Shown here: positions 18,076-64,000 of the stretch, in pieces | How positions within the stretch are numbered: the stretch's first letter is position 1 | Layout of the letters: every line of letters begins with the position of its first letter | Source: Balanoglossus misakiensis | Lineage: Eukaryota > Animalia > Hemichordata | Length of the DNA stretch: 64,000 nt | Reading direction: 5' to 3' | Assembly (NCBI GenBank): GCA_040954595.2 | Contig: CM082588.2 | Location: 9,966,844-10,030,843 of the forward strand | Notes under the pieces: generated by a model | Database searches by the model: none | Told to the model about the DNA's origin: nothing | The model's input: the letters and a program-made list of their open reading frames with translations, nothing else | Position numbers and translations under genes: made by a program

Positions 18076-18284
18076 GTAATACTAACATATCATAGAATGC
18101 AATGCATCGAACATTATTGATTTGCATGTTACGTATAGTTCTATAGTGGATGTAGAATCCCGGAGAGACTAATATGATCACATGGTACATTTCATAAACA
18201 GAATACTTTAATTTCTTGTAAATATGAAATACAGTGAATAAATAAAATGTATCGGCAGTGCAAAATGTAAACCAACAGTGGAGT

Positions 18285-31583: not shown

Positions 31584-33279
31584 CAGACCTTAGCGAATAT
31601 TCGAAAGGGGCTTAGCTGAACCAAAGTTGCCGTAACAATCCTGAAGATGCCACCAATTGTGACGGAAACCCGAACGGTATACCTCGGAAAACTGGTAGGG
31701 CGCAGGCGGACCGGAGTGAGCCTCTCACAAACAGCGCTGTCTCTAAACACAGCGGTCAGAACTCGTCAGAACGCGGAAAGCAGGCGTCTTGATGAAGATA
31801 TCGGCCCACACCGAGCTGCTAAGGTAAACACGTCTGAGATCTCCGATCGGTGACACGGGGCTGGCTAGACCCGGGGCTGGCTAACCGATAGCGATACAAG
31901 TGGACTAATCAGGTAAAGTTGCACAGAGCTGAAACTTGAGGTTCCCCCTTCAACAGATCCACGCTAATTCCCCCCTCAAATATACATGATAGACAGGCTC
32001 ATCACGTGACCCAGAACGCACTTCTGATTGGTGATTGATTCACCAGGGGAGAGATGGGGAAACCCCTCCATCTCTAGCTTGCCAGACAAGTCAGCCCAGT
32101 AATGGTCACCATGGCAACACCACCACGCAAATGAAGCCAAAGAAAAACACAATGCAAAATAATAATTCACATGGAATAGCAATTCAATAACACACATTTG
32201 ACGTCATTCAACATTTGCTGCGTACAAAATGTCTAAATGTTTCTAAATGTGGGTGTTTTAATATTGTTCTGTTCGTATATATTCCAATTCACATGAATGG
32301 GGGTGGTAAATGTTATCACATTCAGTATGAGAATTTCGGTGTCAGGTTTGGTCCTTGTGTCCAACGCTTTCAGTCAACACTTACAGTATCTACCGGTCTT
32401 CTGTTAGCTTTCTTTGCACTCCATTCTGTAAACATGCAAAGCTCAGTCGGTTTATTATGTGGATGGGTTGGTTTGACGAGAATGTCTTGACATGTCGAAA
32501 TTTCATTATAGGATTAATGATTATTCTTTTGTTCTATTTTCCTCATGCATCCAGAAATTGTGCTTACTGTGCGGGTGTTTTAATTATCCATGGAGCCTGT
32601 ACTTCACACTCCCTGTAATTTCTTTCAATTCCCTTTGCCACATGGGGCCACTGTATAAGGGGAAGATGGCAAGAGTAAAATACAGTGCATCCTGTCGACC
32701 GTCCGTTTTGTTGTTTCTCGGCTTTATTTTTCTCCTTGTTTATAAAGTTCTCCATTGTTCGGTTACTGTATTTAATCATTTCACTATTTCACCATTTCGT
32801 GATTTTGTTGATTATAATTAGCCAAAATTAAGTAGTTTAAGCTTATACATGCACGACGTATGTTGCATGTGTGTTCAATGTTTCAAGGTGTCGTTTTTAC
32901 ATGTAGGTAAATTGTCAATTGCGTGGCCATGCAGACACACTATCATGTAGTCAGTGCAGTGTGTCCCGGATGTAATCTAATGTAGTTCTATTGTTTACTC
33001 ATGGAGCTACTTAACGTGTCAAAGTTACTATGTACTGCTTCGAGCGGTGTATTTTTGTATTGGGTGCCATGTGTTAACTTATTATTTAGCTAAATTATTT
33101 GTTCAAAAGTCGTTATTTAACATACTTATATGTATGTAATTAAAAATTTGCAAACCATTTAAGTCCTGACAATTTATTTATAAATAATTTCAAGTCGATT
33201 CAATTATATACATAAAATGTATTTTATGCTCTTTTATTTATATATAATAAATTATTTATAAACAATGTCAGTGTCAGTC

Positions 33280-33550
33280 TATTATATATATATCATGAGT
33301 GATGTACATAATTATTTATATTTAATTAATTATTTATAAATAATAAAAATTTAAGTGTATTATATATATATCATGAGTGATGTACATAATTATTTATGTA
33401 TAATTAATTATTTATAAATAATACAAATGTAAGTGAATTATATATATATATCATGAGTGATGTACATAATTATTTATATATAATTAATTATTTATAAATA
33501 AACAAAATTTAAGTGTATTATATATATATCATGAGTGATTTACATTATAT
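33280..33550. repeat. AT-rich minisatellite, ~78-80-bp unit x ~3.5
   Basis: Repeated tatatatatatcatgagtgatgtacataattatttata..taattaattatttataaata. Confidence 0.9.
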
Positions 33551-33786
33551 AATGAATTATATATAAATAAGTGATTTCTAAACCATGAAAAAATGCACTC
33601 GCGCCGTTTGTCAACTTATTGTTTAACGCAAACTCATTATTTAACGCAAACTCATTATTTAAGGCCTGTTCACACAACCCCTTGCATTTGGATCATTATG
33701 TACACATATAGTCCCCACACGTGAACAAGAAATGCACATTACTTGCGGTCATTTCATTTTTATTATACTCATATATACTTATATAT

Positions 33787-36700
33787 CTGTAATGGAAATG
33801 GAGAAAGTACCTTATATTTTCTGTAAAATAGACATTTAATTGGCAAGCCGTCCTGCATCAATTATTAATTGTGTACATGCACTAAAGCGCCCTCACTGCT
33901 GGGTGTGTTGTATGGTCTTTAACCCTGTTTCAAATTAGAGTACTTTCTGCAATTTCAAGACAGATCTTACGTGCCATTGGAGAGCTCCATTGACTGGTCA
34001 TTCATACTGTTTTCATTCATTCATTGCGGCATCAATATATTTTATCTATTCTAGCCAAAGAGCTTGGCACCTGTTGAAATGAACTCATCTGCTGTGGGCC
34101 AGTTTATTGGTGGCAGTTGAGCTGAGGAGAGCACCTTCCTTCCCGGCACGCCACCAAGTAAAGTTCCACGCCGCCCCCCACAGATGCCAGCATTCATTCA
34201 TGCGAGTGAGTGTAATTGCAAATTTGCCTATTCTAGATCTGTAATGGAAATGGAGAAAGTACCTTATATTTTCTGTAAAATAGACATTTAATTGGCAAGC
34301 CGTCCTGCATCAATTATTAATTGTGTACATGCACTAAAGCGCCCTCACTGCTGGGTGTGTTGTATGGTCTTTAACCCTGTTTCAAATTAGAGTACTTTCT
34401 GCAATTTCAAGACAGATCTTACGTGCCATTGGAGAGCTCCATTGACTGGTCATTCATACTGTTTTCATTCATTCATTGCGGCATCAATATATTTTATCTA
34501 TTCTAGCCAAAGAGCTTGGCACCTGTTGAAATGAACTCATCTGCTGTGGGCCAGTTTATTGGTGGCAGTTGAGCTGAGGAGAGCACCTTCCTTCCCGGCA
34601 CGCCACCAAGTAAAGTTCCACGCCGCCCACCACAGATGCCAGCATTCATTCATGCGAGTGAGTGTAATTGCAAATTTGCCTATTCTAGAATCTTACGTGC
34701 CATTGGAGAGCTCCATTGACTGGTCATTCATACTGTTTTCATTCATTCATTGCGGCATCAATATATTTTATCTATTCTAGCCGAAGAGCTTGGCACCTGT
34801 TGAAATGAACTCATCTGCTGTGGGCCAGTTTATTGGTGGCAGTTGAGCTGAGGAGAGCACCTTTCTTCCCGGCACGCCACCAAGTAAAGTTCCACGCCGC
34901 CCACCACAGATGCCAGCATTCATTCATGCGAGTGAGTGTAATTGCAAATTTGCCTATTCTTACGTGCCATTGGAGAGCTCCATTGACTGGTCATTCATAC
35001 TGTTTTCATTCATTCATTGCGGCATCAATATATTTTATCTATTCTAGCCAAAGAGCTTGGCACCTGTTGAAATGAACTCATCTGCTGTGGGCCAGTTTAT
35101 TGGTGGCAGTTGAGCTGAGGAGAGCACCTTCCTTCCCGGCACGCCACCAAGTAAAGTTCCACGCCGCCCACCACAGATGCCAGCATTCATTCATGCGAGT
35201 GAGTGTAATTGCAAATTTGCCTATTCTAGATCTGTAATGGAAATGGAGAAAGTACCTTATATTTTCTGTAAAATAGACATTTAATTGGCAAGCCGTCCTG
35301 CATCAATTATTAATTGTGAACATGCACTAAAGCGCCCTCACTGCTGGGTGTGTTGTATGGTCTTTAACCCTGTTTCAAATTAGAGTACTTTCTGCAATTT
35401 CAAGACAGATCTTACGTGCCATTGGAGAGCTCCATTGACTGGTCATTCATACTGTTTTCATTCATTCATTGCGGCATCAATATATTTTATCTATTCTAGC
35501 CAAAGAGCTTGGCACCTGTTGAAATGAACTCATCTGCTGTGGGCCAGTTTATTGGTGGCAGTTGAGCTGAGGAGAGCACCTTCCTTCCCGGCACGCCACC
35601 AAGTAAAGTTCCACGCCGCCCACCACAGATGCCAGCATTCATTCATGCGAGTGAGTGTAATTGCAAATTTGCCTATTCTAGATCTGTAATGGAAATGGAG
35701 AAAGTACCTTATATTTTCTGTAAAATAGACATTTAATTGGCAAGCCGTCCTGCATCAATTATTAATTGTGTACATGCACTAAAGCGCCCTCACTGCTGGG
35801 TGTGTTGTATGGTCTTTAACCCTGTTTCAAATTAGAGTACTTTCTGCAATTTCAAGACAGATCTTACGTGCCATTGGAGAGCTCCATTGACTGGTCATTC
35901 ATACTGTTTTCATTCATTCATTGCGGCATCAATATATTTTATCTATTCTAGCCAAAGAGCTTGGCACCTGTTGAAATGAACTCATCTGCTGTGGGCCAGT
36001 TTATTGGTGGCAGTTGAGCTAAGGAGAGCACCTTCCTTCCCGGCACGCCACCAAGTAAAGTTCCACGCCGCCCACCACAGATGCCAGCATTCATTCATGC
36101 GAGTGAGTGTAATTGCAAATTTGCCTATTCTAGAATCTTACGTGCCATTGGAGAGCTCCATTCATACTGTTTTCATTCATTCATTGCGGCATCAATATAT
36201 TTTATCTATTCTAGCCGAAGAGCTTGGCACCTGTTGAAATGAACTCATCTGCTGTGGGCCAGTTTATTGGTGGCAGTTGAGCTGAGGAGAGCACCTTCCT
36301 TCCCGGCACGCCACCAAGTAAAGTTCCACGCCGCCCACCACAGATGCCAGCATTCATTCATGCGAGTGAGTGTAATTGCAAATTTGCCTATTCTTACGTG
36401 CCATTGGAGAGCTCCATTGACTGGTCATTCATACTGTTTTCATTCATTCATTGCGGCATCAATATATTTTATCTATTCTAGCCAAAGAGCTTGGCACCTG
36501 TTGAAATGAACTCATCTGCTGTGGGCCAGTTTATTGGTGGCAGTTGAGCTGAGGAGAGCACCTTCCTTCCCGGCACGCCACCAAGTAAAGTTCCACGCCG
36601 CCCACCACAGATGCCAGCATTCATTCATGCGAGTGAGTGTAATTGCAAATTTGCCTATTCTAGATCTGTAATGGAAATGGAGAAAGTACCTTATATTTTC

Positions 36701-39700
36701 TGTAAAATAGACATTTAATTGGCAAGCCGTCCTGCATCAATTATTAATTGTGTACATGCACTAAAGCGCCCTCACTGCTGGGTGTGTTGTATGGTCTTTA
36801 ACCCTGTTTCAAATTAGAGTACTTTCTGCAATTTCAAGACAGATCTTACGTGCCATTGGAGAGCTCCATTGACTGGTCATTCATACTGTTTTCATTCATT
36901 CATTGCGGCATCAATATATTTTATCTATTCTAGCCAAAGAGCTTGGCACCTGTTGAAATGAACTCATCTGCTGTGGGCCAGTTTATTGGTGGCAGTTGAG
37001 CTGAGGAGAGCACCTTCCTTCCCGGCACGCCACCAAGTAAAGTTCCACGCCACCCACCACAGATGCCAGCATTCATTCATGCGAGTGAGTGTAATTGCAA
37101 ATTTGCCTATTCTAGAATCTTACGTGCCATTGGAGAGCTCCATTGACTGGTCATTCATACTGTTTTCATTCATTCATTGCGGCATCAATATATTTTATCT
37201 ATTCTAGCCGAAGAGCTTGGCACCTGTTGAAATGAACTCATCTGCTGTGGGCCAGTTTATTGGTGGCAGTTGAGCTGAGGAGAGCACCTTCCTTCCCGGC
37301 ACGCCACCAAGTAAAGTTCCACGCCGCCCACCACAGATGCCAGCATTCATTCATGCGAGTGAGTGTAATTGCAAATTTGCCTATTCTTACGTGCCATTGG
37401 AGAGCTCCATTGACTGGTCATTCATACTGTTTTCATTCATTCATTGCGGCATCAATATATTTTATCTATTCTAGCCAAAGAGCTTGGCACCTGTTGAAAT
37501 GAACTCATCTGCTGTGGGCCAGTTTATTGGTGGCAGTTGAGCTGAGGAGAGCACCTTCCTTCCCGGCACGCCACCAAGTAAAGTTCCACGCCGCCCACCA
37601 CAGATGCCAGCATTCATTCATGCGAGTGAGTGTAATTGCAAATTTGCCTATTCTAGATCTGTAATGGAAATGGAGAAAGTACCTTATATTTTCTGTAAAA
37701 TAGACATTTAATTGGCAAGCCGTCCTGCATCAATTATTAATTGTGTACATGCACTAAAGCGCCCTCACTGCTGGGTGTGTTGTATGGTCTTTAACCCTGT
37801 TTCAAATTAGAGTACTTTCTGCAATTTCAAGACAGATCTTACGTGCCATTGGAGAGCTCCATTGACTGGTCATTCATACTGTTTTCATTCATTCATTGCG
37901 GCATCAATATATTTTATCTATTCTAGCCAAAGAGCTTGGCACCTGTTGAAATGAACTCATCTGCTGTGGGCCAGTTTATTGGTGGCAGTTGAGCTGAGGA
38001 GAGCACCTTCCTTCCCGGCACGCCACCAAGTAAAGTTCCACGCCGCCCACCACAGATGCCAGCATTCATTCATGCGAGTGAGTGTAATTGCAAATTTGCC
38101 TATTCTAGATCTGTAATGGAAATGGAGAAAGTACCTTATATTTTCTGTAAAATAGACATTTAATTGGCAAGCCGTCCTGCATCAATTATTAATTGTGTAC
38201 ATGCACTAAAGCGCCCTCACTGCTGGGTGTGTTGTATGGTCTTTAACCCTGTTTCAAATTAGAGTACTTTCTGCAATTTCAAGACAGATCTTACGTGCCA
38301 TTGGAGAGCTCCATTGACTGGTCATTCATACTGTTTTCATTCATTCATTGCGGCATCAATATATTTTATCTATTCTAGCCAAAGAGCTTGGCACCTGTTG
38401 AAATGAACTCATCTGCTGTGGGCCAGTTTATTGGTGGCAGTTGAGCTGAGGAGAGCACCTTCCTTCCCGGCACGCCACCAAGTAAAGTTCCACGCCGCCC
38501 ACCACAGATGCCAGCATTCATTCATGCGAGTGAGTGTAATTGCAAATTTGCCTATTCTAGATCTGTAATGGAAATGGAGAAAGTACCTTATATTTTCTGT
38601 AAAATAGACATTTAATTGGCAAGCCGTCCTGCATCAATTATTAATTGTGTACATGCACTAAAGCGCCCTCACTGCTGGGTGTGTTGTATGGTCTTTAACC
38701 CTGTTTCAAATTAGAGTACTTTCTGCAATTTCAAGACAGATCTTACGTGCCATTGGAGAGCTCCATTGACTGGTCATTCATACTGTTTTCATTCATTCAT
38801 TGCGGCATCAATATATTTTATCTATTCTAGCCAAAGAGCTTGGCACCTGTTGAAATGAACTCATCTGCTGTGGGCCAGTTTATTGGTGGCAGTTGAGCTG
38901 AGGAGAGCACCTTCCTTCCCGGCACGCCACCAAGTAAAGTTCCACGCCGCCCACCACAGATGCCAGCATTCATTCATGCGAGTGAGTGTAATTGCAAATT
39001 TGCCTATTCTAGATCTGTAATGGAAATGGAGAAAGTACCTTATATTTTCTGTAAAATAGACATTTAATTGGCAAGCCGTCCTGCATCAATTATTAATTGT
39101 GTACATGCACTAAAGCGCCCTCACTGCTGGGTGTGTTGTATGGTCTTTAACCCTGTTTCAAATTAGAGTACTTTCTGCAATTTCAAGACAGATCTTACGT
39201 GCCATTGGAGAGCTCCATTGACTGGTCATTCATACTGTTTTCATTCATTCATTGCGGCATCAATATATTTTATCTATTCTAGCCAAAGAGCTTGGCACCT
39301 GTTGAAATGAACTCATCCTTCCCGGCACGCCACCAAGTAAAGTTCCACGCCGCCCACCACAGATGCCAGCATTCATTCATGCGAGTGAGTGTAATTGCAA
39401 ATTTGCCTATTCTAGAATCTTACGTGCCATTGGAGAGCTCCATTGACTGGTCATTCATACTGTTTTCATTCATTCATTGCGGCATCAATATATTTTATCT
39501 ATTCTAGCCGAAGAGCTTGGCACCTGTTGAAATGAACTCATCTGCTGTGGGCCAGTTTATTGGTGGCAGTTGAGCTGAGGAGAGCACCTTCCTTCCCGGC
39601 ACGCCACCAAGTAAAGTTCCACGCCGCCCACCACAGATGCCAGCATTCATTCATGCGAGTGAGTGTAATTGCAAATTTGCCTATTCTTACGTGCCATTGG

Positions 39701-41069
39701 AGAGCTCCATTGACTGGTCATTCATACTGTTTTCATTCATTCATTGCGGCATCAATATATTTTATCTATTCTAGCCAAAGAGCTTGGCACCTGTTGAAAT
39801 GAACTCATCTGCTGTGGGCCAGTTTATTGGTGGCAGTTGAGCTGAGGAGAGCACCTTCCTTCCCGGCACGCCACCAAGTAAAGTTCCACGCCGCCCACCA
39901 CAGATGCCAGCATTCATTCATGCGAGTGAGTGTAATTGCAAATTTGCCTATTCTAGATCTGTAATGGAAATGGAGAAAGTACCTTATATTTTCTGTAAAA
40001 TAGACATTTAATTGGCAAGCCGTCCTGCATCAATTATTAATTGTGTACATGCACTAAAGCGCCCTCACTGCTGGGTGTGTTGTATGGTCTTTAACCCTGT
40101 TTCAAATTAGAGTACTTTCTGCAATTTCAAGACAGATCTTACGTGCCATTGGAGAGCTCCATTGACTGGTCATTCATACTGTTTTCATTCATTCATTGCG
40201 GCATCAATATATTTTATCTATTCTAGCCAAAGAGCTTGGCACCTGTTGAAATGAACTCATCTGCTGTGGGCCAGTTTATTGGTGGCAGTTGAGCTGAGGA
40301 GAGCACCTTCCTTCCCGGCACGCCACCAAGTAAAGTTCCACGCCGCCCACCACAGATGCCAGCATTCATTCATGCGAGTGAGTGTAATTGCAAATTTGCC
40401 TATTCTAGATCTGTAATGGAAATGGAGAAAGTACCTTATATTTTCTGTAAAATAGACATTTAATTGGCAAGCCGTCCTGCATCAATTATTAATTGTGTAC
40501 ATGCACTAAAGCGCCCTCACTGCTGGGTGTGTTGTATGGTCTTTAACCCTGTTTCAAATTAGAGTACTTTCTGCAATTTCAAGACAGATCTTACGTGCCA
40601 TTGGAGAGCTCCATTGACTGGTCATTCATACTGTTTTCATTCATTCATTGCGGCATCAATATATTTTATCTATTCTAGCCAAAGAGCTTGGCACCTGTTG
40701 AAATGAACTCATCTGCTGTGGGCCAGTTTATTGGTGGCAGTTGAGCTGAGGAGAGCACCTTCCTTCCCGGCACGCCACCAAGTAAAGTTCCACGCCGCCC
40801 ACCACAGATGCCAGCATTCATTCATGCGAGTGAGTGTAATTGCAAATTTGCCTATTCTAGAATTCTTACGTGCCATTGGAGAGCTCCATTGCCTGGTCAA
40901 TCATACTGTTTTCATTCATTCATTGTGGCATCAATATATTTTATCTATTCTAGCCGAAGAGCTTGGCACCTGTTGAAATGAACTCATCTGCTGTGGGCCA
41001 GTTTATTGGTGGCAGTTGAGCAGAGGAGAGCACCTTCTTTCCCGGCACGCCACCAAGTAAAGTTCCACG
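33787..41069 (+). repeat. Left terminal array of unit A (177 bp, 11 copies) and unit B (~270 bp, ~20 copies), higher-order pattern
   Basis: Order ABABBB ABABBB ABBB ABABABABBB ABAB+partial B. The AB period is 452 bp and the copies are almost identical. Confidence 0.95.
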
Positions 41070-42859
41070 TGCATTCCTGGCCCTGGTTTTATTTATGTTT
41101 ACAGACAATATTGCATTTTTGTACAAGTATTTTAATCAACTATAAATTTTGAATGTGTCATTTACCTGAACCGGTCATGTTGACCAGAATGATACATTTC
41201 TGCCTTCACTCACCCTATAAATATGTGATTGAGACATAGGTCATTTGCATAAGCTAACATACCAGAAAGTAAGCATATCTGTTGTTTTCCCTGTGTCACT
41301 GCCATCAAAGTAAAAATTAGACGTTGTGTAGAGCAAACTCCAATTTTTTGTTCTCAATAAACATGGATGAATTACATAGAATGTGTTTGTTGTTTACAGT
41401 CTTTAAATGACACATTAGATTATGCACTTTACAAAACGTTTATGAGAAACAAGTGACTAACTAGTTTCTTTCCACTGTGGCCAACGTGGTTCACTGTTTG
41501 TGTCAGAATCTCTCTGTTTTGCAAGGATTTTGAAATCATAGTGGTGACATGCATAGTGAAAATCAGCTACTTTCAAATGTCCGTCATGTTCATGCTGTAA
41601 TTGAATTTTCAAAGCTGGGCTGGCGTGTTTTTTCTTATTTACATAAGTATCACACTTTATACATGTATCTTCATGGGGTTTTTTGAGTCCCGTATTTAGG
41701 TCCTCTCTCACAATTTTACGAAATATCGTATAACTGACAGTTGTTCTTCCCAGAAGAGATTGGTTGGTTATGAACTCTCGGTGTAACTGCGATATACTGT
41801 GGTCCGGCGCCAGGTACGGTTTAAATCGAGGATTCCTGCAGTAGTGAGATTCTACAATTATGTGCCTGCGTACGTGTTCAGTGATATCAGTCAGCAAATT
41901 TGGATTGAGTTTCCGACGATGCCCTTTGTGTCGGCCCCTTGCATCTGGCATCAGACCAGTAAAGTTCCATGTGCATTCCTGGCCCTGGTTTTATTTATGT
42001 TTACAGACAATATTGCATTTTTGTACAAGTATTTTAATCAACTATAAATTTTGAATGTGTCATTTACCTGAACCGGTCATGTTGACCAGAATGATACATT
42101 TCTGCCTTCACTCACCCTATAAATATGTGATTGAGACATAGGTCATTTGCATAAGCTAACATACCAGAAAGTAAGCATATCTGATGTTTTCCCTGTGTCA
42201 CTGCCATCAAAGTAAAAATTAGACGTTGTGTAGAGCAAACTCCAATTTTTTGTTCTCAATAAACATGGATGAATTACATAGAATGTGTTTGTTGTTTACA
42301 GTCTTTAAATGACACATTAGATTATGCACTTTACAAAACGTTTCTGAGAAACAAGTGACTAACTAGTTTCTTTCCACTGTGGCCAACGTGGTTCACTGTT
42401 TGTGTCAGAATCTCTCTGTTTTGCAAGGATTTTGAAATCATAGTGGTGACATGCATAGTGAAAATCAGCTACTTTCAAATGTCCGTCATGTTCATGCTGT
42501 AATTGAATTTTCAAAGCTGGGCTGGCGTGTTTTTTCTTATTTACATAAGTATCACACTTTATACATGTATCTTCATGGGGTTTTCTGAGTCCCGTATTTA
42601 GGTCCTCTCTCACAATTTTACGAAATATCGTATAACTGACAGTTGTTCTTCCCAGAAGAGATTGGTTGGTTATGAACTCTCGGTGTAACTGCGATATACT
42701 GTGGTCCGGCGCCAGGTACGGTTTAAATCGAGGATTCCTGCAGTAGTGAGATTCTACAATTCTGTGCCTGCGTACGTGTTCAGTGATATCAGTCAGCAAA
42801 TTTGGATTGAGTTTCCGACGATGCCCTTTGTGTCGGCCCCTTGCATCTGGCATCAGACC
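41056..42859. repeat. 902-bp tandem duplication containing the 3' half of the N-terminal transposase ORF
   Basis: 41056-41957 matches 41958-42859, with AGT microhomology at the junction. It produces the truncated ORF 41457-41951. Confidence 0.95.
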
Positions 42860-43315
42860 AGTTGAACAGTGCATCATTTTGCTTAGAACGGTTCTAGTCC
42901 GCCTCTCACTAATGCCAAATAATTTCAGGAATGCATTTTTGCAGACAGTAACCGTTTCACCGCCTTCATTCACCAGGTGATAACGAACCGATTTCTTGTG
43001 TGACTTCATCTGTATATCCATCAGTTTGTAGAGCATCAAGTTCTGTTCATTATACACGCGACCATCAAAATATTTTCTCGTGGTGCCTAAAACATGCGTA
43101 CTCCCAAGCTTCCGCAGACAATTCCCTTGAACGCAGGCGCATTCCAAGGAAAGACTGTCAATATCTGGAAAAGGGCGATTTTTCCTTGGTTTTTGTCTCG
43201 GACACGTCTTTTTAGAATTCCTACGTGGCTTGTTGGCTCGAGCTGACAGTTCGGTTCTGCGTTGCTGCCACACAGGAATGGGTTCCCACGCATAAGCAAC
43301 TCCCCGGCAGGCCAT
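42359..43315 (-). CDS. Sola-type transposase, N-terminal (Zn/DNA-binding) half, 318 aa
   Basis: Uninterrupted ORF from an accATGg start. Motifs CACVQGNC, EQNLML, YHL..VCKNAFLKLFGISERR, DARGRH, HVRR..ESHYCR..YL..SISQLHREF, VSYTIF..KPHEDTCIKCD..H..A, which I recognise from Sola1-type transposases. Confidence 0.8.
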   Translation of the reverse strand: MACRGVAYAWEPIPVWQQRRTELSARANKPRRNSKKTCPRQKPRKNRPFPDIDSLSLECACVQGNCLRKLGSTHVLGTTRKYFDGRVYNEQNLMLYKLMDIQMKSHKKSVRYHLVNEGGETVTVCKNAFLKLFGISERRTRTVLSKMMHCSTGLMPDARGRHKGHRRKLNPNLLTDITEHVRRHRIVESHYCRNPRFKPYLAPDHSISQLHREFITNQSLLGRTTVSYTIFRKIVREDLNTGLRKPHEDTCIKCDTYVNKKKHASPALKIQLQHEHDGHLKVADFHYACHHYDFKILAKQRDSDTNSEPRWPQWKETS

Positions 43316-43478
43316 GGTCACAGCTGAAGTATTTGTTCAAGTACTGACTGACTAAACGCGGCATGGAACAAACGAACGAACGACTTCACGTTCGGAAAAA
43401 AAATCGTTGCGAGCTGTTGGGTGCCTCTATAGTTGTCGGCAACCGTTCTTTTTTATTGCTAAACAATGCTGTCAGAGC

Positions 43479-44492
43479 ATGGAAGGTGTGGTGGAAAACG
43501 AACAGAGGTTTTGTACGACCAACGATTGGATGGTGCTACATATGGACTTCCACAAGTCATTGCCGGTTCCTAAACTCAGCTCTGAAGACTTTTACTTTAA
43601 ATCGAAATTGCAAATGAAGCTCCTTGGAATTTACAACGGGACAACGGAAAAGATGCATTGTTATGTATGGACAGAGCTCGATAGCAGAAAGTCTCCCGAT
43701 GAAGTTATTACCTGTCTAAATCACTTTTTTTATAACTCGGGTGTGACCAGCAGACATGCAGTTATTTACAGCGACAACTGCCGTGCCGAATTCAAGTGTG
43801 GGAAGTTAATGTTTTACTATGACTATCTGTTACGAAAGGGCGTGTTTCGACGAATTGACTATAAAACTCTTGTGGCTGGACACACGTACTCCACCTGTGA
43901 CCGAGTTTTTGCGTCCATTGAAAGGCATGCAAGTCGTTTCCAGAGTATAGAGACACCTCACGATTGGACATCTGTGATTCGAGGATCTTCTCTGAATGGG
44001 AACATTGGAGTTACGGAGATGACTCACAGAGACTTTTTCAATTATTCTGATTTCCTGAAAAATGAGTACGTTGTGCGTTATGCAGATACAAACAATGTAA
44101 CTTTTTACTACCAAGCCATGCACTATTTTAATTTTGGAGAAGGAGAAAGGCTTGATACCGACGGCAACCTCAGAACATTTAGTCATGCAGATAAAGTTTG
44201 GGTGAGAACATCTCTAGATCCAAGCGAGACCCCGATTGTAGTCGACTTTAGAAAGAAGAAGCAGAACCGGCGTTTACAAGATTGTACGCTGAACAAACTT
44301 TATCAGGAACGTCGACCACTGGCGAGCAAAGTTTGGCGGGATCTTCAGAGTTTAGCCAAAAATTACCTGTCTCCGGAGGCAATAGAATTTTATAGGAATC
44401 TACCGCTTCAGGAGAGTAGTGGCACCTCTGCAGACCCGTACGCCTTTCATGATGATGACGACGACGATGATGATGATATGGGCGGTGGTTGA
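43479..44492 (+). CDS. Sola-type transposase, C-terminal catalytic DDD half, 337 aa
   Basis: Uninterrupted ORF from agcATGg. Motifs HMDFHKSLPVP..FYFKSKL..CYVWTE..EVITCL, IYSDNC and LVAGHTYSTCDRVFASIE give three candidate catalytic Asp. Acidic tail. Confidence 0.85.
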   Translation: MEGVVENEQRFCTTNDWMVLHMDFHKSLPVPKLSSEDFYFKSKLQMKLLGIYNGTTEKMHCYVWTELDSRKSPDEVITCLNHFFYNSGVTSRHAVIYSDNCRAEFKCGKLMFYYDYLLRKGVFRRIDYKTLVAGHTYSTCDRVFASIERHASRFQSIETPHDWTSVIRGSSLNGNIGVTEMTHRDFFNYSDFLKNEYVVRYADTNNVTFYYQAMHYFNFGEGERLDTDGNLRTFSHADKVWVRTSLDPSETPIVVDFRKKKQNRRLQDCTLNKLYQERRPLASKVWRDLQSLAKNYLSPEAIEFYRNLPLQESSGTSADPYAFHDDDDDDDDDMGGG

Positions 44493-44882
44493 ACAAACTG
44501 TCCTTTTCATGACGACAGTGATTTTGGATATTTGATGTGCGTGCACAGTTTATATGTAATATTTTCACACGAACGAGTTTTGACTGAATTTGATTAAAGA
44601 ATGTACTCGATAATTAACAAATGTGCTGAATCGTGGTTATTATGTTGTTAATTTTTGTTTGTTTGTTTGTTTGTTTGTTTGTTTGTAAACAATTTCCGTT
44701 CATTCAACTGGCTACAAAGTTGGATTTTTGTACTGGGAAGCGATAAACTCGCACATCAAAACCGGGGAGACTCGATCATTTTTCCCTGCAGGTAGCCTGA
44801 AAAGCACCCGGGCAGAGATTACGTCATATATGGTCCACTTTAATACGAAATTATGCAAATGTGACATTTCACGGAAACGGCG

Positions 44883-44892
44883 TATATAAAAG
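44883..44892 (+). promoter_or_regulatory. TATA box upstream of the SET gene
   Basis: tatataaaag about 100 bp upstream of the ATG at 44984. Confidence 0.45.
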
Positions 44893-44983
44893 CGACCCTG
44901 GGCTATTGTTCGGAATGCGTCATCGACGAGAGAGTGACTGATAATTCTTCTACCTCGAGTCAACCATTCTGTATATACTGAAC

Positions 44984-46310
44984 ATGGCTAGCTGGCGCAG
45001 GAAGAGACAAGGCAATGTGCGGTCTGTAATCAACGAACGGCACCGCTCAGTTCAGTGTCCCTTTCTTCAAAAGTGGATCGGTGAGCAATTGGTATTTTCA
45101 GGTCGTTCAGAGGATGAAGTCCAGTCCAGTACTGTATTTGAGAGCTACAAATGTTGGGTTGAAAACTATTCGTCGGCGGACAATCAAGTAATGATTATGG
45201 TTACTAAAGCTCGATTTTTCAAGGTGAGAATGATCGCATTTTTCTTCCCCCCCCCCCTCCCTCCCCCAAGGGACTCGTTTTCTGTCTCTTTTAAACCTGT
45301 AACTTAACGAAAAGGAAGTTTTTCACATATCTCTTTGTTGACACTATAGCAATTTGGAGCGCGGATGCTTCAAGAGAATAGCGTTACCAAATCAAAGTCG
45401 GCCGGGGTTAATATTTATAGAGGTGTTCGTCTGAAAGCTGGTTCGCGAAGAATCTCAACGGGGAAACCTGAGCACAGTGTACTTCAGACCAGGGCAAGGG
45501 CATTTCTTGATGACGCCAGCGTGACCGTTCCGATCGAGGTAAGAATGGTGTTTTGTTTGGACTAGGACAATAGAACGTTGCAATGAGTGTGTCAATGGGT
45601 GTCCAAGTGCAAACGTGGTCGGCTTCTGTCCACAAATGCCATTAATTTTAGGCAGGATTTATAAAATTGTCAATGAAGAATACAAAAATGAAAAACAATA
45701 GTTAATAGCAAACGGGTAGGATTGCAAGGGCTTGTAAAACGGTACACACTGTACCAGGAAGTTTGCAACACTAATGAAGAATGTATATGATATATTTAGG
45801 TGAGAACTGTTCGCGATCGCCGGGACGCAGGACGGTGCGCGTTTTCGACGAGGGATCTTCAAGCCTGGAACGTCGTCTGCGAATACCGGGGCACGGTTAT
45901 TAGCGTTGAAGAAGCTAGTCGGCGTGATGAACTTTACAGGGCAGAGGGGAAACGACCACGCATGTTTCATCTCTACATTGGAAAGAGACACGTTGTGTGA
46001 GTGTATCACTTAGTCGAATATATGGTCATATATTGCAAAGCATCTGTCGAAATAGAAAACGTAATATTGTCTATATTTTCCTCATTAACGCAGCATTGAC
46101 GGATACGATGTCCCAGCCGGTGAAGAAAATTTAGCGGGCCTAATAAATCACAGTCAGCAGAACGCCAACTTGGTACCGGTTCGGATCGGAGAGCGCCTGG
46201 TTTTCTTTGCAACCAGGAATCTTTGTCAGGGAGTAGAGCTTTTGTATGATTACGGTGACGGGGGTGAAGAGGATTTCTTCAGTGGTTCTCAAACTTTTCC
46301 TGAAAATTAA
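44984..46310 (+). CDS. Winged-helix-like N-terminus + SET-domain lysine methyltransferase (SETD8/PR-Set7-like), 4 exons, 280 aa
   Basis: GT-AG exons 44984-45223, 45350-45538, 45800-45996 and 46094-46310 join in frame (843 nt). SET motifs: GRCAFSTRD..VCEYRGTVIS..EA..R, IDG, GLINHS..NL, FFATRNL..GVELLYDYG. The N-terminal FLQKWI..VFESYKCW..FFKQF..YRGVRLK resembles an RFX/D5-type winged helix (inference). Confidence 0.82.
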
Positions 46311-47214
46311 GGCATTAACACATCAACGCTTCGGGATGTCGTAACGGCGGCAAGGCGGGGGGGGGGGGGGCGTGAAAATGTTTGTATCAGGAACAAAATT
46401 CCCCTGCAAATCACCTTGATCCGGGTGGGTGGACTATTCGCGACAAATGTTGAAATCATACAAAGCATTTTACTTAATTAACCCATTTTTTTTTCATTTA
46501 TTTGTTTACAGTTTACAACGTCATAGAGAAGTTGAACTAGAGACTGGATCAGCGTGGGTGACACCATAGTACACCAATGTTTTCTTCCGTTTGAATCAAT
46601 TGTAATTTAAAACTGAGATTGCCTAACGCTTTCCCAGATTTTTTTAACCACTGAGAAACTGTGGGTTTTTTTCTGGGTTTTGGTGCGAGGTGATCTCAGT
46701 CAGTGGTGTTAATTTAATTAATCATTTTATTTTCCTATTTACGTCGACTGAAATATATTTTGATAGGTGATAGTCATACCATAAAAAAATCTTACGGCGC
46801 GACTGCCAAAATGTACATTTATTTGTCCGTTCCAAGTTATTTTGTGTATGTGTGATGGGTGCCGGTGACTGTGCAGGGTTGATTTCCCTAGAGCGACTGT
46901 TATATTCGTTTTCCAACGATGATGAATTTACATGTTATTTGCTTGGCATTTTGACGCAGAGACACTTCTGAAAACACAAACCTATTAATTATGCCACGGG
47001 TGTAAATTGATCACATTAAAAGAGGCTTTAGACGTTTGCCGCGAGCTCCTGGTGGGCAGAATCTTGTCAGCCCAAATTTGACTATAAGTACATAGCCAAT
47101 GATATGACGCTCTCCCACATCCTTCGCCGCGCCTTTTCGCTGATTTACAGCATCTTGCGTAAACACTGTCATTTGATCTTGCTTGGCAGAAGTCAACTTG
47201 CTCTATACTACATT

Positions 47215-47580
47215 ATGGCGGCCAAGCTCAACTGCATATCAGATAATGCCAAGGAGCGTTTGAGAGGCATCCTCGCCAGAAGGAGTCGCGTTTCCGGTGA
47301 CTGTGTGCTCTGGACGGGTGCAGCTTGTCGAAACGGCTATGGCTCTATTACGTTCAAAGATGAGAACACTCTAACCGCCTATGTCCATCACATTGCACTC
47401 CTAATTAACGGAGTGCAATTGGTGGGCAGGCGGTTAGAGTGTTCTCATCTTTGCAACGAAAAGCTATGCATCCGCCCAGAGCACATTGTCCAGGAAACGC
47501 GACTCCTAAACATTTCACGAAAGACGTGCTTTAAATCCCCAAAAGGGGAGTGTCACCACGATCCCAGGTGCCTAAGGTGA
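47215..47580 (+). CDS. His-Me finger (I-PpoI-like Zn-binding loop) endonuclease, 121 aa
   Basis: CVLWTGA..NGYG.I...YVHHIA..ECSHLCNEKLCIRPEHIVQE...NISRKTC...C.HDPRC, i.e. the SHLC..C..P.H..E..N..R..C..C.H.P.C His-Cys-box pattern. Confidence 0.88.
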   Translation: MAAKLNCISDNAKERLRGILARRSRVSGDCVLWTGAACRNGYGSITFKDENTLTAYVHHIALLINGVQLVGRRLECSHLCNEKLCIRPEHIVQETRLLNISRKTCFKSPKGECHHDPRCLR

Positions 47581-48554
47581 GTAATCCTCTTCTCATTTGA
47601 TATGTATTGTGTGACCCTGCAGTTGAAACGCTTTCATCAATAATTTGCGGCGCGTGGGTAATCTCGGTGTTATTGACAATGCAGCCGGCCCAAACATTTT
47701 TAAATTAACACTGTTTCTGACTGTATTAACGAAATGTCCAATTTGCAAGTAGCCTATAGACAACCCTTTTGAATGAGTTTTGTCTCGTTGAGATTTTATA
47801 CATAAGGAACAATCTAGATTTATTTTAGAAGACACTGTTCTTTTAAAACAGCTAGCATAATACAGCTAAATTTCGGAATTTCCGGACAATTTTCGGAATT
47901 CCTTTTAAATTTGAGAAATTTTTCATCAGATATAAGTGTTACTATTTATTGGGCATGTTTTTATCATTGTTTACTTTTTAAGGTCATTCTCATCCCCCCC
48001 CCCCCAAAAAAAAAGCCGCTTTAGGCTTCATGTTCAGTAAAAAATCTGGAAAGTTCAGCTGAATTTTACACTGATCACACATTTTTGGGAAGGTCTGGCG
48101 CAAAATAAAGGATGACAAATGTAAATCTAATGTCACATTTGTAAACCTCTAAGTATTGTACACTCATTCTATTAAGTATATGCAAATAGTACGGATAATT
48201 TTTTCGGAATGTGGAATTCCGAAATTAGTTCGGAACGTGTTAGCAGTGAAGAGATCACCACTGAGGGTTGGAAGGCCTTGCCAGAAATTAACGCGTAAAG
48301 TACGCCCTCACAGGCCATGTAAACAAGGTCAAATAAGGCCGTCTGGCAAACGAATGATTAATTCAACGCGCCATTTGAGCCGAGCTGAGTTGGTCTGAGT
48401 TACGTATCACACAGACTTAGGCTGAATGTCAGTGGAGTAACCAGTCCGTTTTAGATTTACCAATGATGTGAATTTAATTTCTTCACCCAGAAAAACAGAA
48501 CACAACTTGTCTGCAACATGATGCTGGAGGTGACACATGACAGAGAAGTGGATC

Positions 48555-48890
48555 CGCGTTGTCAACACAGATGCCAGCATTCAAAAGGGGAGTGCCACCT
48601 GCTAAAATCAACTCATCTGCTGTTGGCCCATTTTACCTGTGGCAACTGTTCAGAGGAGACAACGTTTATTCCGTGCAAGCCAACACGCAATGTTGGGGTC
48701 TACCTGTCAACACAGATGCAAGCATTCATGTGAGTGAGTATCAGGACTGACCTTGTATTTGCTGAATAATTCATAATGCCTATTTTAGAATTCTTAGAGG
48801 CATTTGGAGTTCATTGCCTGGTCAACCAAACTACACCCCTTAACAGCTGAAACAAAATGCGTATTGTGTTCATTCATTCATTGCATCAAT
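48555..48890 (+). repeat. Degenerate relic of array unit B
   Basis: cacagatgccagcattca, cacctgctaaaatcaactcatctgctgt, gcctattttagaattctta and cattcattcattgcatcaatatat are recognisable but diverged and rearranged. Confidence 0.7.
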
Positions 48891-49209
48891 ATATATAGGC
48901 AACATGAGTATCAAGTAGCACTATTTGTTTACGATTGTATTCATGAAAACTTCCCACTAACAATTCCACAGTTAATATTGAACACATTTATCCAACAAGG
49001 TCAAAAGAAAAAGGGAATCTTCTGGTTCCAAAATACGCCACAAATGTGGGTCAACATACAGTGAAATATTATGGTGCTCAAATATGCAACATATCAAATC
49101 TGTCTCATCAAAGTCATGCTTTAAAAAAGAATTGAAAAGGTATTATTTATCCATTTGACTGCTGTATTTTCAGAAGGAAAACAAACTGAATTTGGTTTTT
49201 CATGTACAA

Positions 49210-50085
49210 ATATTTTCTGTAAAATAGACATTTAATTGGCAAGCCGTCCTGCATCAATTATTAATTGTGTACATGCACTAAAGCGCCCTCACTGCTGGGT
49301 GTGTTGTATGGTCTTTAACCCTGTTTCAAATTAGAGTACTTTCTGCAATTTCAAGACAGATCTTACGTGCCATTGGAGAGCTCCATTGACTGGTCATTCA
49401 TACTGTTTTCATTCATTCATTGCGGCATCAATATATTTTATCTATTCTAGCCAAAGAGCTTGGCACCTGTTGAAATGAACTCATCTGCTGTGGGCCAGTT
49501 TATTGGTGGCAGTTGAGCTGAGGAGAGCACCTTCCTTCCCGGCACGCCACCAAGTAAAGTTCCACGCCGCCCACCACAGATGCCAGCATTCATTCATGCG
49601 AGTGAGTGTAATTGCAAATTTGCCTATTCTAGATTCTTACGTGCCATTGGAGAGCTCCATTGACTGGTCATTCATACTGTTTTCATTCATTCATTGCGGC
49701 ATCAATATATTTTATCTATTCTAGCCAAAGAGCTTGGCACCTGTTGAAATGAACTCATCTGCTGTGGGCCAGTTTATTGGTGGCAGTTGAGCTGAGGAGA
49801 GCACCTTCCTTCCCGGCACGCCACCAAGTAAAGTTCCACGCCGCCCACCACAGATGCCAGCATTCATTCATGCGAGTGAGTGTAATTGCAAATTTGCCTA
49901 TTCTAGATCTGTAATGGAAATGGAGAAAGTACCTTATATTTTCTGTAAAATAGACATTTAATTGGCAAGCCGTCCTGCATCAATTATTAATTGTGTACAT
50001 GCACTAAAGCGCCCTCACTGCTGGGTGTGTTGTATGGTCTTTAACCCTGTTTCAAATTAGAGTACTTTCTGCAATTTCAAGACAG
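49210..50085 (+). repeat. Right terminal array: partial A, B, B, complete A
   Basis: Same units and orientation as the left array. It ends exactly at the ACAG of unit A. Confidence 0.95.
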
Positions 50086-50479
50086 ATATACTTATATACT
50101 TATATACTTATATATTAGATGAAACACCGAAAAAGGTATCAACTAGTTAGTGATTTTAGCCCGTGATTGCAATGTTTGATTGAAACGCGAAAAGCTGATC
50201 GATAGCTCTACATTGTGGTCTCCGAGGTCAAAGGTTGGCCGGTCATGGCGATACCATTATTAAAATAGGGGCCAGTCATCAAAACGTAAGTGAGCCAAAA
50301 AACTACAGGTCAGATAAATTGTTTTCTCGTAAATTCAACATTAGAATCAAATTTGGCGTTGGAAACAAACGGCGGGTCGCCAGTTCCTGGTCTGGAGGCT
50401 GGTAGAGTCACGTCTTGAAGACTGGCCCCTATTTTAATAATGGCATTCCAGCATATGTCTCTATACCCGAATCGACAAT

Positions 50480-53400
50480 TAACATTACAGGACAGCTGAC
50501 GGATATAAAATTTATACTTTATAGAGAGGAACAAATTCAGACTTAAACATACTTTATATGTTTGTATTTTACAGCTGGGATACTTTTCTGTGCGTAAAGA
50601 TAAACACTGGTCGCAATAAATGACGTCGAGTGGTTTCAGTTGAATTCCATTTGTGCGAGGCAGGTGTGGACAGCATGCAAAGCGGCGTTGTTATTGGCGC
50701 GGTTCCTTTAAAGTGTTTTACTCTGTCATTCAGCGAGTTTTCTGACCGCGTATGAAGTTCGGTGTCCAGTGGCGTTGACGGCGTGTCATTCAGAAATCTA
50801 TGTTCAGTGTATTCAGTTCAAGACTGAAGTCAGCAAATGTTACAATTATTAGTTTGTTTGTGGAAGTTGGAAATGATGCAACAAGGATTCTTGAATGTAT
50901 TCGAGATTTTAAAAAGAAGATGTAGTGCTCTAAAGGGCCATTGTGACGACAATATTTTGCCCAACAGCTGTATAAACTGTTGCTCACGATAATTCCTGAC
51001 TTTATCGCGGTCTGGTTGAAAAATGTTTGTATGTTACTTGATTGTGGTGGAGTGTTTTTCTGCCGACTAAACAAACATTCTGTGCCATATATTAAGTGTG
51101 TTGAGTGGTTTCCGCCAAAGTCTATACGCATAAAGTCAATAGATTAAACAGTATTTAATCGTTAAGAGATGCCCCCCCCCCCCGTTACGCTTATACATTT
51201 CAACACATATATGCACAAACGAATGGACAATTTGCATTACAAAACAGCTGGTAAAATTCATACTTGCATTTTATAGAGAAGAAAAAACTTAAAAGACTTA
51301 AACTTATATGCTGATAGTTTACAGCAGGGGTATTTTGTGTGTGTAAAGGTAAACACTAATAGCAATAAATGACGTCGAGTGGTTTCGGTTGAATTCCATT
51401 TGTGCAAGGCAGTGGTGGACAGCAATAAACCATGCAAAGTAGCGCTGTTATCAATGCGGTTTCCATAAAGTTGTCTGCTCCGTCATTCAGCGAGTATTCT
51501 GACTGTGTATGCAGGTCGACATCCAGTGGCTTTGACGGCGTGGCATTCGGCGGTAAGTGTAATAAGACTAAAGTTAGCTAATTTGCCAATTATTACTTTG
51601 TATGTAGGAATTAATGTTTTGAAATGATGCCACGAGTCTTCTTGAATTTAATTGACATTATAAAATGCTGATGTTGGCTGGCAAAAGTAAATTCTCAGTT
51701 AATATCCTGAACATCTAAAAGAGTATTGCAATGAATGATCATTGTAATTTGTGGACATTATTTGCTTTATTTTTGTTTTAAAAGAACAAGTTCACATTGC
51801 ATTGCGACACTTTGTATTTAGTTTGCAAAGTGGTTAGACGTACGTAGTTTTGGAAGCAAAGCGGACAAAATACGGCTACATACAAGACACTTGACTATTC
51901 TGACACGCGATTCTGTTGACAGTACAGTGTGTCCTCGATGCAATCTACTGTGTACTCACACTCATGAATCTACTTAACGTGTCAGGATTTACTGTTTTAC
52001 TTGTTCGAGCACAGTCATCACTGCTCGACTGAGCTTGTCAAGAAAGCCGAAACGGAGTAGCACAAAACCCCAAATCAATCATGCAACATTCACGTAAGAC
52101 AGCGATCTGCAGTCGAAATAGAATAGTACTGGACAAGTAACGGTTTAATTTATATGTGGACACATTTGTGAGACGTACATTCTGATTGGCTTCGTTTCGT
52201 CAACTCTGTAACTGGCCGATGAATGATTGATTAATTCTAAATATGAGAAATAAAACATTGTCTCTTCTGGCAACGCAGAAACTGTACAAGGGGATGGGGA
52301 ATAGTTTACGTCAATGTGTTGAATGCAAAACAGCTGTATGAATTCTAGCTCATGAAAATCCTGACTTTATCGCGATCTGGTTGAGAGGTGTTTTTCTATC
52401 CTGCTTGATTGTGAGTTTGAATGGCGGAGTATTTCTCTACCAACTAAAACATTCTGTGCTATAAAATGTGTTGAGTGGTTTCGGTATGCCATAAAGCCAA
52501 AACAATAAACAGTATACATGTATTTAATCTTTAAGACCCGAAGTAAATTTCTTCTGATTACAAGCTGAATAGATTGTTTGTATGACAATTAATTTCGAAA
52601 CGGATTCCACGGATCGGAATATCCACAAAAACAATTCTTGATGTACATATAATGCCAAACATCATAGCTGAAAGGTCACTTTACTCCTTTACCTCGTACC
52701 ACTGAGAGAGCGCTGATAACAGCAATCAAATCAATATTGGCTGACAATTTTATGAATACTGGTCTTGGTTTTAATAAATCCTAGTCGAAAAGGATTAATG
52801 CGAATGAACGGTGCTGATAAAGATGACAGAATTAACACTGGTACACATGCAATCTCACTGACTCCAAATAAAATCAGATGAAGGTGTTGATGAAGGCCAT
52901 TCTCTATGACAATAATAACTGCAAGCAATTGCTTATCTACATTACACGTGTTAGGGCGTTGAATCCGATTGACTCGTTAGCGACAAGAGGGAGGACAACA
53001 GTAGTACAGGGATGGAAATCAAAAATTGGATTTACCCGTCTAAAACTGTTAGTCAATGTGGGTCTTATGATTTATGGATATTATATGTAAACTTGAATTA
53101 AGCAATAACCCCCGCCGCAGGCGGGTATACACGAGATTTGGGTACAATTCGAGACATATAGCACGAGCCGTCAGGCGAGTGCTATATGGAGCGAATTGTA
53201 CCCAAATCGAGTGTATACCCGACTGAGGCGGGGGTTATTGCTATTACATTATATCAACAACTGTTTTTGTGGCATATCAGTGTCATTTTCTTACCGAAAC
53301 GGTGTCAGAAAGAGAAATTACGATCGTGAACCAACATGGCGACGACGAATGTAAACACGAGCGGCCGGGATCGAGCATTAAACATGAAGCAGACGACAAA

Positions 53401-62400: not shown

Positions 62401-63550
62401 CTGAACATCTAAAACAGTATTGCAATGAATGATCATTGTAATTTGTGGACGTATTTGCTTCACATTGCAGTTCACATTGCATTGCGACACTTTGTGTTTA
62501 CTTTGCAAAGTGGTTAGACGTACGTAGTTTTGGAAGCAAAGCGGACAAAATACAGCTAGATACTAGATACTTGACTATTCTGACACGCGATTCTGTAGAC
62601 AGTACAGTGTGTCCTCGATGCAATCTACTGTAGAACATATGTGTACTCACAGTCATGAATCTACTTAACGTGTCAGGATTTACCGTTGTACTTGTTCGAG
62701 CACTGTCATCACTGCTCGACTGAGCTTATCAAGAAAGCCGAAACGGAGTAGCACACAACCCCAAATCAATAATGCAACATTCACGTAAGACAGCGATCTG
62801 CAGTAGAAATAGAATAGTACTGGACAAGTCATGGTTTAATTTATATGTGAACACATTTGTGAGACGTACATTCTGATTGGCTCCGTTTCGTCAACTCTTT
62901 AACTGGCCGATGAATAATTGAATAATTCTAAACATGAGAAATAAAACACGGTCTCTTCTGGCAACGCAGAAACTGTACAGGGGGGAATAGTTTACGTCAA
63001 TGTGTTGAATGCAAAACAGCTGTATGAATTCTAGCTCATGATAATCCTGACGTTATCGCGATCTGGTTGAGAAGTGTTTCTATCCTGCTTGATTGTGTGT
63101 TTGAATGGCGGAGTATTTCTCTACCAACTAAAACATTCTGTGCTATAAAATGTGTTGAGTGGTTTCGGTATGCCATAAAGCCAAAACAATAAACAGTATA
63201 CATGTATTTAATCTTTAAGACCCTAAGTAAATTTCTTCTGATTACAAGCTGAATAGATTGTTTGTATGACAATCAATTTCAAAACGGATTCCACGGATCG
63301 GAATATCCACAATTCTCGATGTACATATAGTCCCAAACATCATAACTGAAAGGTCTAATTTATGAATACATTTTATAGTGGCCAGGTCACAAATATCCCC
63401 CATACTTCTTTACTTTGTACCACATAGAGAGCGCTGATAACAGCAATAAAATCAATATTGGCTGACAATTTTATGAATGCTGGTCTCGGTTTTAATAAAT
63501 CCTAGTCGAAAAGGATTAATGCGAATGAACGGTGCTGATAAAGATGACAC
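50480..63550. repeat. Diverged complex multi-kb tandem/segmental repeat, non-coding
   Basis: Blocks recur with substitutions and indels, e.g. ~50560-53090 vs ~57060-60100 vs ~61200-63550, and ~56400-57700 vs ~60560-61830. Related sequence also lies at ~32950-33060. Confidence 0.85.
53096..53670. mobile_element. Non-autonomous hairpin element (Crypton-like, tentative)
   Basis: A ~140-nt hairpin at 53101-53242 (agcaataacccccgcc...ggcgggggttattgct), a GC-richer body, and a ccaatcagaatcgcg..tgatataa end. It is absent from the sibling repeat copies. Confidence 0.55.
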
Positions 63551-64000
63551 AAGTAAAGGGTCTATGACATGCTTTAAAAAGTTTTCATTTTTCCACGTCA
63601 AAAGCTCACCTAGGGTACCTGTCTATGCATTGCTTATTGTGTCGGTTCCGAAAAATGTGCGCGAATGCCGGAATTTGCCCCCTTTTTTCATGCCTGTGAT
63701 CAGGAAGCCACTTCGCACTCGAGCCAGGCGAAGGTATTTGCATATGGTCAAACAAGTACACTAGGTCCTAGTAGTCCTGTTTACAGTAAAGTGTAATTAG
63801 CGGTCCATGAGTAATTAAGTCCACAGTCAAAGACAAGCTATATAAACAGTGTTCAAAGCAAAGGAAGCCCTTGCCTCACATTACAGGCAGAGGATTTACA
63901 AAGGTGTGAAAGACTATTTGTCCACATCAAGATAAGTCTTCGGCTTAACTTCGAAAAGCCGAAAAAAATCGACTGAGTTGGGTTAGGGGTACACGCCCAC

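Follow-up and report, generated by a model that had tools for sequence, protein, structure and literature searches.

Two divergent genes for one transposase

The window analyzed here is a 64,000-nucleotide (nt) stretch of Balanoglossus misakiensis DNA (GenBank assembly GCA_040954595.2, contig CM082588.2, positions 9,966,844 to 10,030,843). It carries two head-to-head open reading frames (ORFs), A and B, and comparison of their sequences confirms that they correspond to the front and catalytic halves of a single DUF7869 (Sola1-like) transposase with a catalytic triad of aspartates (DDD), here encoded divergently (Table 1). A first-pass annotation of the same DNA had described two transposase halves on opposite strands 163 bp apart, each with its own ATG and stop and no frameshift, and that description stands: both frames are open from end to end. 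Their start contexts are GACCATGG and AGCATGG, both with a purine at -3 and G at +4, and the chance probability of frames this long is about 1e-9 each at the base composition of the window. The surrounding DNA is repeat-rich, its introns are of the spliceosomal type, and the named relatives of both genes come from marine invertebrates.

Table 1. Coordinates of the transposase genes and neighboring features, as positions in the window
Feature	Position	Strand	Description
ORF A	43315-42359	minus	318 aa; front half of DUF7869/Sola1-like transposase; no internal stop
ORF B	43479-44492	plus	337 aa; catalytic RNase H-fold half; no internal stop, no intron
Spacer between A and B	43316-43478		163 bp; candidate shared promoter
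Partial A duplicate	41056-41960	minus	3' half of A plus downstream flank, 905 bp, tandem
SET-domain gene	exons 44984-45187, 45350-45538, 45800-45996, 46094-46310	plus	predicted; 268 aa, no stop, GT..AG introns
His-Me finger (PF05551) endonuclease ORF	47104-47580	plus	Pfam E 5.4e-13
Left array	33787-41069		tandem 177-bp and ~274-bp modules; left outer flank ATAT
Right array part	49210-50085		ends in a complete 177-bp module, then ATAT; candidate right end of a 16.3-kb insertion

The spacer has an observed/expected CpG ratio of 1.35, compared with 0.83-0.86 in its flanks. Read contigs from two runs of one sample, possibly the source of the window itself, follow the assembly into the spacer from both sides. 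In one DNA run, a contig matching 42833-43403 covers the start of A and part of the spacer, and another matching 43422-44534 covers part of the spacer and B, with one differing letter each. At 43421, between these two, a contig has a 4-base insertion variant. Among the contigs listed, none holds both starts, and none of the 15 joints listed (of 21) between read contigs and window changes strand. The main contigs differ from the window once across both ORFs and 12 times in the next 1.6 kb, and no remnant of a recent breakpoint was found at the pair. An out-of-frame ATG at 43363 on the plus strand opens an 84-codon ORF (43363-43617) that overlaps the start of B and would act as an upstream ORF if the mRNA of B begins before 43363.

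In run X1, contig depth is about 700-800 from A to the SET gene (753-770 over A and B), 1564 over the partial A duplicate, and 122-331 on the longest left-flank contigs; depth is not copy number, and the gene and left-flank values were obtained at different likeness limits. These depths hint at several near-identical copies of the A/B region. The duplicate, at roughly double the depth of its neighbors, differs from A at five positions in 905 bp (99.4% identical) and holds a truncated ORF of 164 aa.

Motifs, fold, and family assignment

ORF A contains the motif D249-T-C251-x-x-C254-D and H279 (CxxC...H), followed by a tail specific to its lineage; ORF B contains D23, D99, G134-H135, and D141. 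B matches PF25273 (DUF7869) at E 1.1e-14, with 55 bits against a curated cut-off of 26. No Pfam family matched A, no Myb/SANT domain was matched in A or nine of its relatives, and a sequence search of the PDB returned no useful match for A or B. In an alignment of 66 rows, D23, D99, and D141 are kept in 62, 63, and 62 rows, respectively, and G134 and H135 of B are nearly invariant, as are the residues matching C251, C254, and H279 of A.

An initial model of B built on only five sequences was poor (predicted local distance difference test, pLDDT, 47) and was replaced by one built on the 66-sequence alignment (pLDDT 90; predicted template modeling score 0.88). The best Foldseek match of this model to integrase-like and Mos1 cores has an E of 2e-4. 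It superposes on foamy-virus integrase with Z 10.4 (root-mean-square deviation 2.8 over 133 residues) and on Mos1 with Z 9.3 (3.1 over 151 residues), and the modeled integrase-like fold shows the DDD triad of B intact.

The position of the break can be read from spacing. In fused relatives, the first catalytic Asp follows the Asp of the DxC motif by a median of 59 residues (range 44-75; 59 of 61 aligned rows measured), whereas the same distance, counted as A tail plus B head, is 92 residues in the window. The break therefore falls in the loop that precedes the first core strand; the loop has gained about 30 residues and lost none, in agreement with the earlier placement in the linker between DTCxxCD..H and the first catalytic Asp.

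We take DUF7869 to be Sola1-like on the strength of its DDD triad and motifs rather than of an alignment to curated Sola reference sequences. The usual Sola1 form has one transposase polypeptide and the window has two ORFs; judged by sequence, the pair is best classed as Sola1-like and derived, not as a canonical Sola1 member. A and its relatives are strongly basic (isoelectric point 9.8-10.2 in eight proteins, 10 in A), a charge that would fit DNA binding and nuclear import.

The split is shared by relatives of both halves

Searching with A at an E limit of 0.001 gave 2597 relatives, of which the best 150 were analyzed. A B-like domain follows the A-like part in 76 of these 150. The six best, by contrast, are stand-alone proteins of 306-347 aa that are 34-40% identical to A along nearly the whole query and share its end point. 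In a tree of 147 rows, which leaves out seven near-duplicate cluster members and rows with fewer than 140 aligned residues, A falls in a 14-row clade (Shimodaira-Hasegawa-like approximate likelihood ratio test, SH-aLRT, 97). No member of this clade is fused, compared with 76 of the 133 rows outside it. A second tree separated 18 A rows from 14 chosen, trimmed fused rows at 100/100, a value that the unequal trimming of the two sets may inflate. Of 15 clade hits, nine are full-length; their ends lie 53-72 residues from the DxC Asp, and five of the nine share a Pro/Trp tail with A. Outside the clade, eight of 56 hits that lack B and retain the motif end within the same 53-72 residues (range 11-246), an interval picked after the clade had been inspected. 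Among clade members with a named source, Oculina contributes a full-length A, and Nematostella and Actinostola contribute truncated ones.

Relatives of B give a corresponding picture. In searches limited to proteins of 168-590 aa, four B-only relatives were found at 41-51% identity. Two of them, P0003 and XP_002739486 of the acorn worm Saccoglossus, start at the same position as B; the latter is 306 aa long, and a later gene model has 344 aa. The best match to B (P0003) and the best match to A (P0006) each lie on a Logan contig of 2400 nt, possibly the same contig.

Overall, these stand-alone relatives with matching ends make it very likely that the split is conserved across a lineage. Protein atlases also hold look-alikes, namely DUF7869 clusters of 318-344 aa (B) and unnamed clusters of 206-262 aa (A), which may be fragments and were not counted as split forms. 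Other searches added no relatives: a word-based search with A at near lengths yielded none among 276 candidates, scans of viral contigs with A1, A3, P0010, and P0001 found no relative, a plasmid search gave no match, and the sole genome-contig match (L002) proved to be a false match in a bacterial contig. One stand-alone A-type protein, P0052 (HAS44388.1), is recorded as a partial protein from a 4965-bp contig assigned to a Microscillaceae metagenome bin; it branches with the Oculina protein and could reflect either host contamination or a bacterial copy.

A tandem relative and the order of events

A metagenome scan confirmed one of 165 candidate stretches, L001, the one relative with readable DNA context. 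It carries the last 102 codons of an A gene, which end in a TGA stop with an in-frame TAG two codons further. After a gap of 42 nt comes the start of B, in the context ACCATGG, with strand and frame unchanged. The split lies at the same loop as in the window. L001 A groups with P0008 and P0009, and L001 B with the Saccoglossus protein. A predicted GT..AG intron (427-738) lies just past the first catalytic strand of L001 B, whereas B of the window is intronless; P0163 starts at the same point, and a B sub-lineage may share this intron. The spacer of the window resembles neither that of L001 nor the 3' flank of A above short chance matches.

Between window and L001, dN is about 0.57 and dS is saturated in both halves (77 and 288 codons), the dN/dS comparison that had been suggested for the pair, and this pattern points to long-term constraint on both halves. 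Together with the stand-alone relatives and the predicted binding described below, it upholds the idea of a maintained two-part transposase.

The geometry is another matter. Head-to-head order is not universal in the split lineage. Since L001 is split but tandem, the split is probably older than the inversion, and we regard an inversion after the split as the probable order of events. Of the expectation that homologues would share a divergent split, the part about the split holds, at the same place in relatives, and the part about divergence does not hold in the sole readable relative, which is tandem. A single colinear ORF in other copies had been named as evidence against the pair; L001 is colinear, yet it has two ORFs and keeps the split. 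The first-pass argument that a chance inversion would not leave two clean ORFs loses its force here, because a pair that is already split, such as the tandem L001 genes, can flip with breakpoints outside the ORFs and stay intact.

Predicted complex and proposed mechanism

A two-chain prediction for A 40-318 and B 8-312, made without alignments, scored 0.69, and the best of three controls scored 0.00. Repeated runs showed contact agreement of at least 58% and partner pLDDT of at least 81. The score mark is reached by 51 of 78 solved and two of 108 mismatched microbial pairs, and in eukaryotes by 39 of 65 solved and two of 126 mismatched pairs; halves of split genes often reach it through resemblance to the fused form. 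The prediction thus suggests that the ancestral packing can be rebuilt from two chains and does not amount to proof of binding in cells.

The confident interface places A 249-254 and 279-300 on B 16-21, 53-55, 95-97, 129-139, and 245-247. Since this brings C251, C254, and H279 of A near the B stretch that contains H135, the model suggests a zinc site shared between the chains, and a zinc ion is likely held by these four residues. We consider it quite probable that the halves act as one complex.

In the mechanism we propose, the basic A would bind the ends of the element, and its last helix and CxxC...H motif would dock on the RNase H core of B, with zinc clasping the chains, while B would cut and join DNA through D23, D99, and D141. 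Both mRNAs would start within the spacer. The history would begin with a single-chain ancestor in which the loop before the first core strand lengthened by about 30 codons and acquired a stop and a new strong ATG; the outcome would be a tandem pair sharing one frame, the arrangement of L001. Inversion of A with its upstream promoter would then have placed that promoter between the genes, with direct access for B.

Surroundings and a candidate element

Directly downstream of B lies the predicted four-exon SET-domain gene, at similar read depth and a possible passenger of an element. It is followed by the His-Me finger ORF, within which is a perfect 26-bp inverted repeat (47355-47380/47428-47453). 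Read contigs alter the first ATG of that ORF at 47104, and the next ATG may be its start.

Both genes and the A/B pair lie between the two parts of a repeat array. The ends of the 177-bp module are imperfect inverted repeats with 18 of 23 matches (0 of 100000 shuffles), and the modules are joined via AGATCT in an (end-middle)n-end arrangement. The array is very abundant, with contig depth tens of times higher than over the genes. An ATAT stands next to each end of the whole block, 33787-50085, in keeping with AWWT; the flanks themselves are TA-rich simple sequence and the ends are those of the repeat module. A loose contig end before 50115 resembles the left flank (18 of its 20 first letters, by eye), the pattern expected of an empty site. 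Neither inner junction (41069 or 49210) is clean, and at 49210 the runs disagree, one leaving the window and the other continuing into the repeat. The gene-bearing part includes, at 48593-48832, an old module copy with about 70% likeness to the 274-bp form, and one contig joins sequence like that at 48682 to 41959, a hint of multimers or of an old connection of the repeat with the genes. Near A and B no inverted repeat stands out, and Rfam has no match in 33000-51000.

From these features one could assemble a bolder account, in which an active Sola1-derived family, working as an obligate zinc-clasped heterodimer with free gene layouts (tandem, head-to-head, or tail-to-tail), drives a 16.3-kb element with SET and His-Me cargo and also mobilizes the 177/274-bp repeat. 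Taken as a whole, we regard this account as doubtful.

Further away, the window holds pieces of a P-element/THAP9-like transposase (26849-28361, plus; PF21787, E 9e-13), a PIF1 helicase fragment (24286-24834, minus; PF05970, E 1.5e-12), and a gene that ends in a PHD finger and is duplicated in tandem (17767-23057; 2.5 kb, 97% identity), a duplication missing from one read contig (joint from 20150 to 22948). A 435-codon frame (7975-9282, minus) has no Pfam hit and resembles the C-terminal part of a long interspersed nuclear element reverse transcriptase. Finally, 50468-63556 is a degenerate nested repeat array with units 70-93% alike and no long ORF.

Weighing the explanations

We favor, with moderate confidence, an old animal lineage of transposases split at one fixed loop, whose halves reassemble and whose head-to-head order in the window came from a later inversion of the split pair. 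Several points weigh against it. Six of 15 clade hits are truncated, so a missing B carries little weight there, and fragments are common among the records of the family. The trees of the two halves agree only in part: the A tree pairs P0001 with P0006 (98/81), and the B tree, which carries a long-branch warning, does not pair P0002 with P0003. The dN/dS comparison bears on the lineage and not on the copy in the window. The zinc site was read from conservation and residue ranges rather than coordinates, the DNA-binding role of A comes without any domain or fold match, and no terminal ends are tied to the A/B transposase. The order of events hangs on one tandem relative, in which a shared frame has a one-in-three chance, and the head-to-head layout was seen in this genome only.

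The same evidence can be arranged in other ways. Head-to-head order might be the old, selected layout of the split lineage, with tandem forms such as L001 as secondary flips; the nesting of L001 A with P0007-P0009 inside the clade would allow the tandem order to be secondary, and the short, CpG-rich spacer also speaks for this layout. L001 nevertheless keeps the order, strand, and frame of a single chain across a gap of 42 nt, and we think a selected head-to-head ancestor rather unlikely. If instead the split lineage is real and the window copy is a recent local flip, silent or decaying, its clean ORFs would reflect youth, its setting in an unstable repeat array beside a partial A duplicate would be expected, the lack of inverted repeats standing out near both genes would be unsurprising, and the ATG at 43363 could block B. 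Such a flip is unlikely in view of the higher contig depth over A and B than over the left flank, with its hint of several copies, the single contig-window difference in the ORFs against 12 in the adjoining 1.6 kb, and the absence of a breakpoint remnant at the pair.

Domestication, or another job without cut-and-paste, for example within a larger element, virus-like or cargo-bearing, that also holds the SET and His-Me genes, would suit relatives that are few and distant (34-52% identity), those two neighbors, and the lack of cognate ends. We judge it quite improbable: all three triad residues are present, the DNA around the pair is rich in repeats and gives no indication of conserved host synteny, several copies are hinted at by depth, and a block bounded by inverted repeats with ATAT flanks encloses the pair. 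It is more improbable still that a single chain is restored at the RNA level, by trans-splicing or tandem read-through, or that the layout is an assembly error. That no listed contig spans both starts and that L001 is in frame would be accommodated, but L001 has two serial stops and a strong ATG, the new tails on A and new heads on B are conserved, and read contigs enter the spacer from both sides.

If the favored history of a split followed by an inversion is true, it would put on record a natural gene fission with a tandem in-frame intermediate, whose halves were selected across distant marine animals and then reshuffled. It would offer a testable model for the origin of two-protein transposons and a place where a split is tolerated, of use in engineering switchable transposases from two parts. 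It would also mean that annotation will file such halves as broken fragments.

Comparison with known systems

Literature searches covering titles and the starts of abstracts, with Repbase Reports and subscription journals outside their reach, found no description of a naturally split Sola transposase among the papers listed, and a search on the term DUF7869 found nothing. To our knowledge, published accounts of eukaryotic cut-and-paste transposases describe complexes of identical chains, and in known two-gene elements the enzyme is paired with an unrelated helper. Sola1 DNA transposons were reportedly described by Bao et al. in 2009. With these and with single-chain DUF7869 proteins, the pair has in common the DDD triad, the DUF7869 core, and the DxCxxC...H and GH motifs of fused relatives; unlike them, it consists of two genes, has new tails at the cut, and occurs in variable gene orientation. 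The features of Sola1 transposons are used here as quoted in PMC3845634 and PMC10741241. According to the former, Sola1 in Megachile has an ORF of 630 aa, close to the roughly 650 aa of A and B summed, and Sola1 target duplications are the 4-bp AWWT (PMC3845634).

The catalytic core of B is modeled as RNase H-like, as in retroviral integrases and Mos1. Identity to these is 8-18%, they are single chains, and the shared fold is no sign of closer kinship.

KolobokP elements have direct repeats of about 450 bp with inverted-repeat ends, form multimers, and carry a His-Me nuclease near a DDD/E transposase (PMC9587614). The window likewise has direct repeats with inverted-repeat ends and a His-Me finger ORF near a DDD transposase. 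Unlike the KolobokP features given there, the module ends are CT...AG rather than RR...YY, the flanks are ATAT rather than TTAA, and inverted repeats enclose just 177 bp of the repeat. Membership was rejected, as B has no C/DxxH between residues 99 and 141; the only His in that interval, H135, has Val three residues before it.

The closest working analogy is PIF/Harbinger, whose DDE enzyme interacts with a DNA-binding partner, each being required (PMC9179366, PMC2836001). Here too, two element-encoded proteins would work together. The pair was not assigned to that group, as A has no Myb/SANT match and finds its homologues in the front parts of single-chain DUF7869 proteins. In PIF/Harbinger as described there, the partner is an unrelated Myb/SANT protein, whereas here it would be the enzyme's own front half, predicted to complete a metal site with the catalytic chain.

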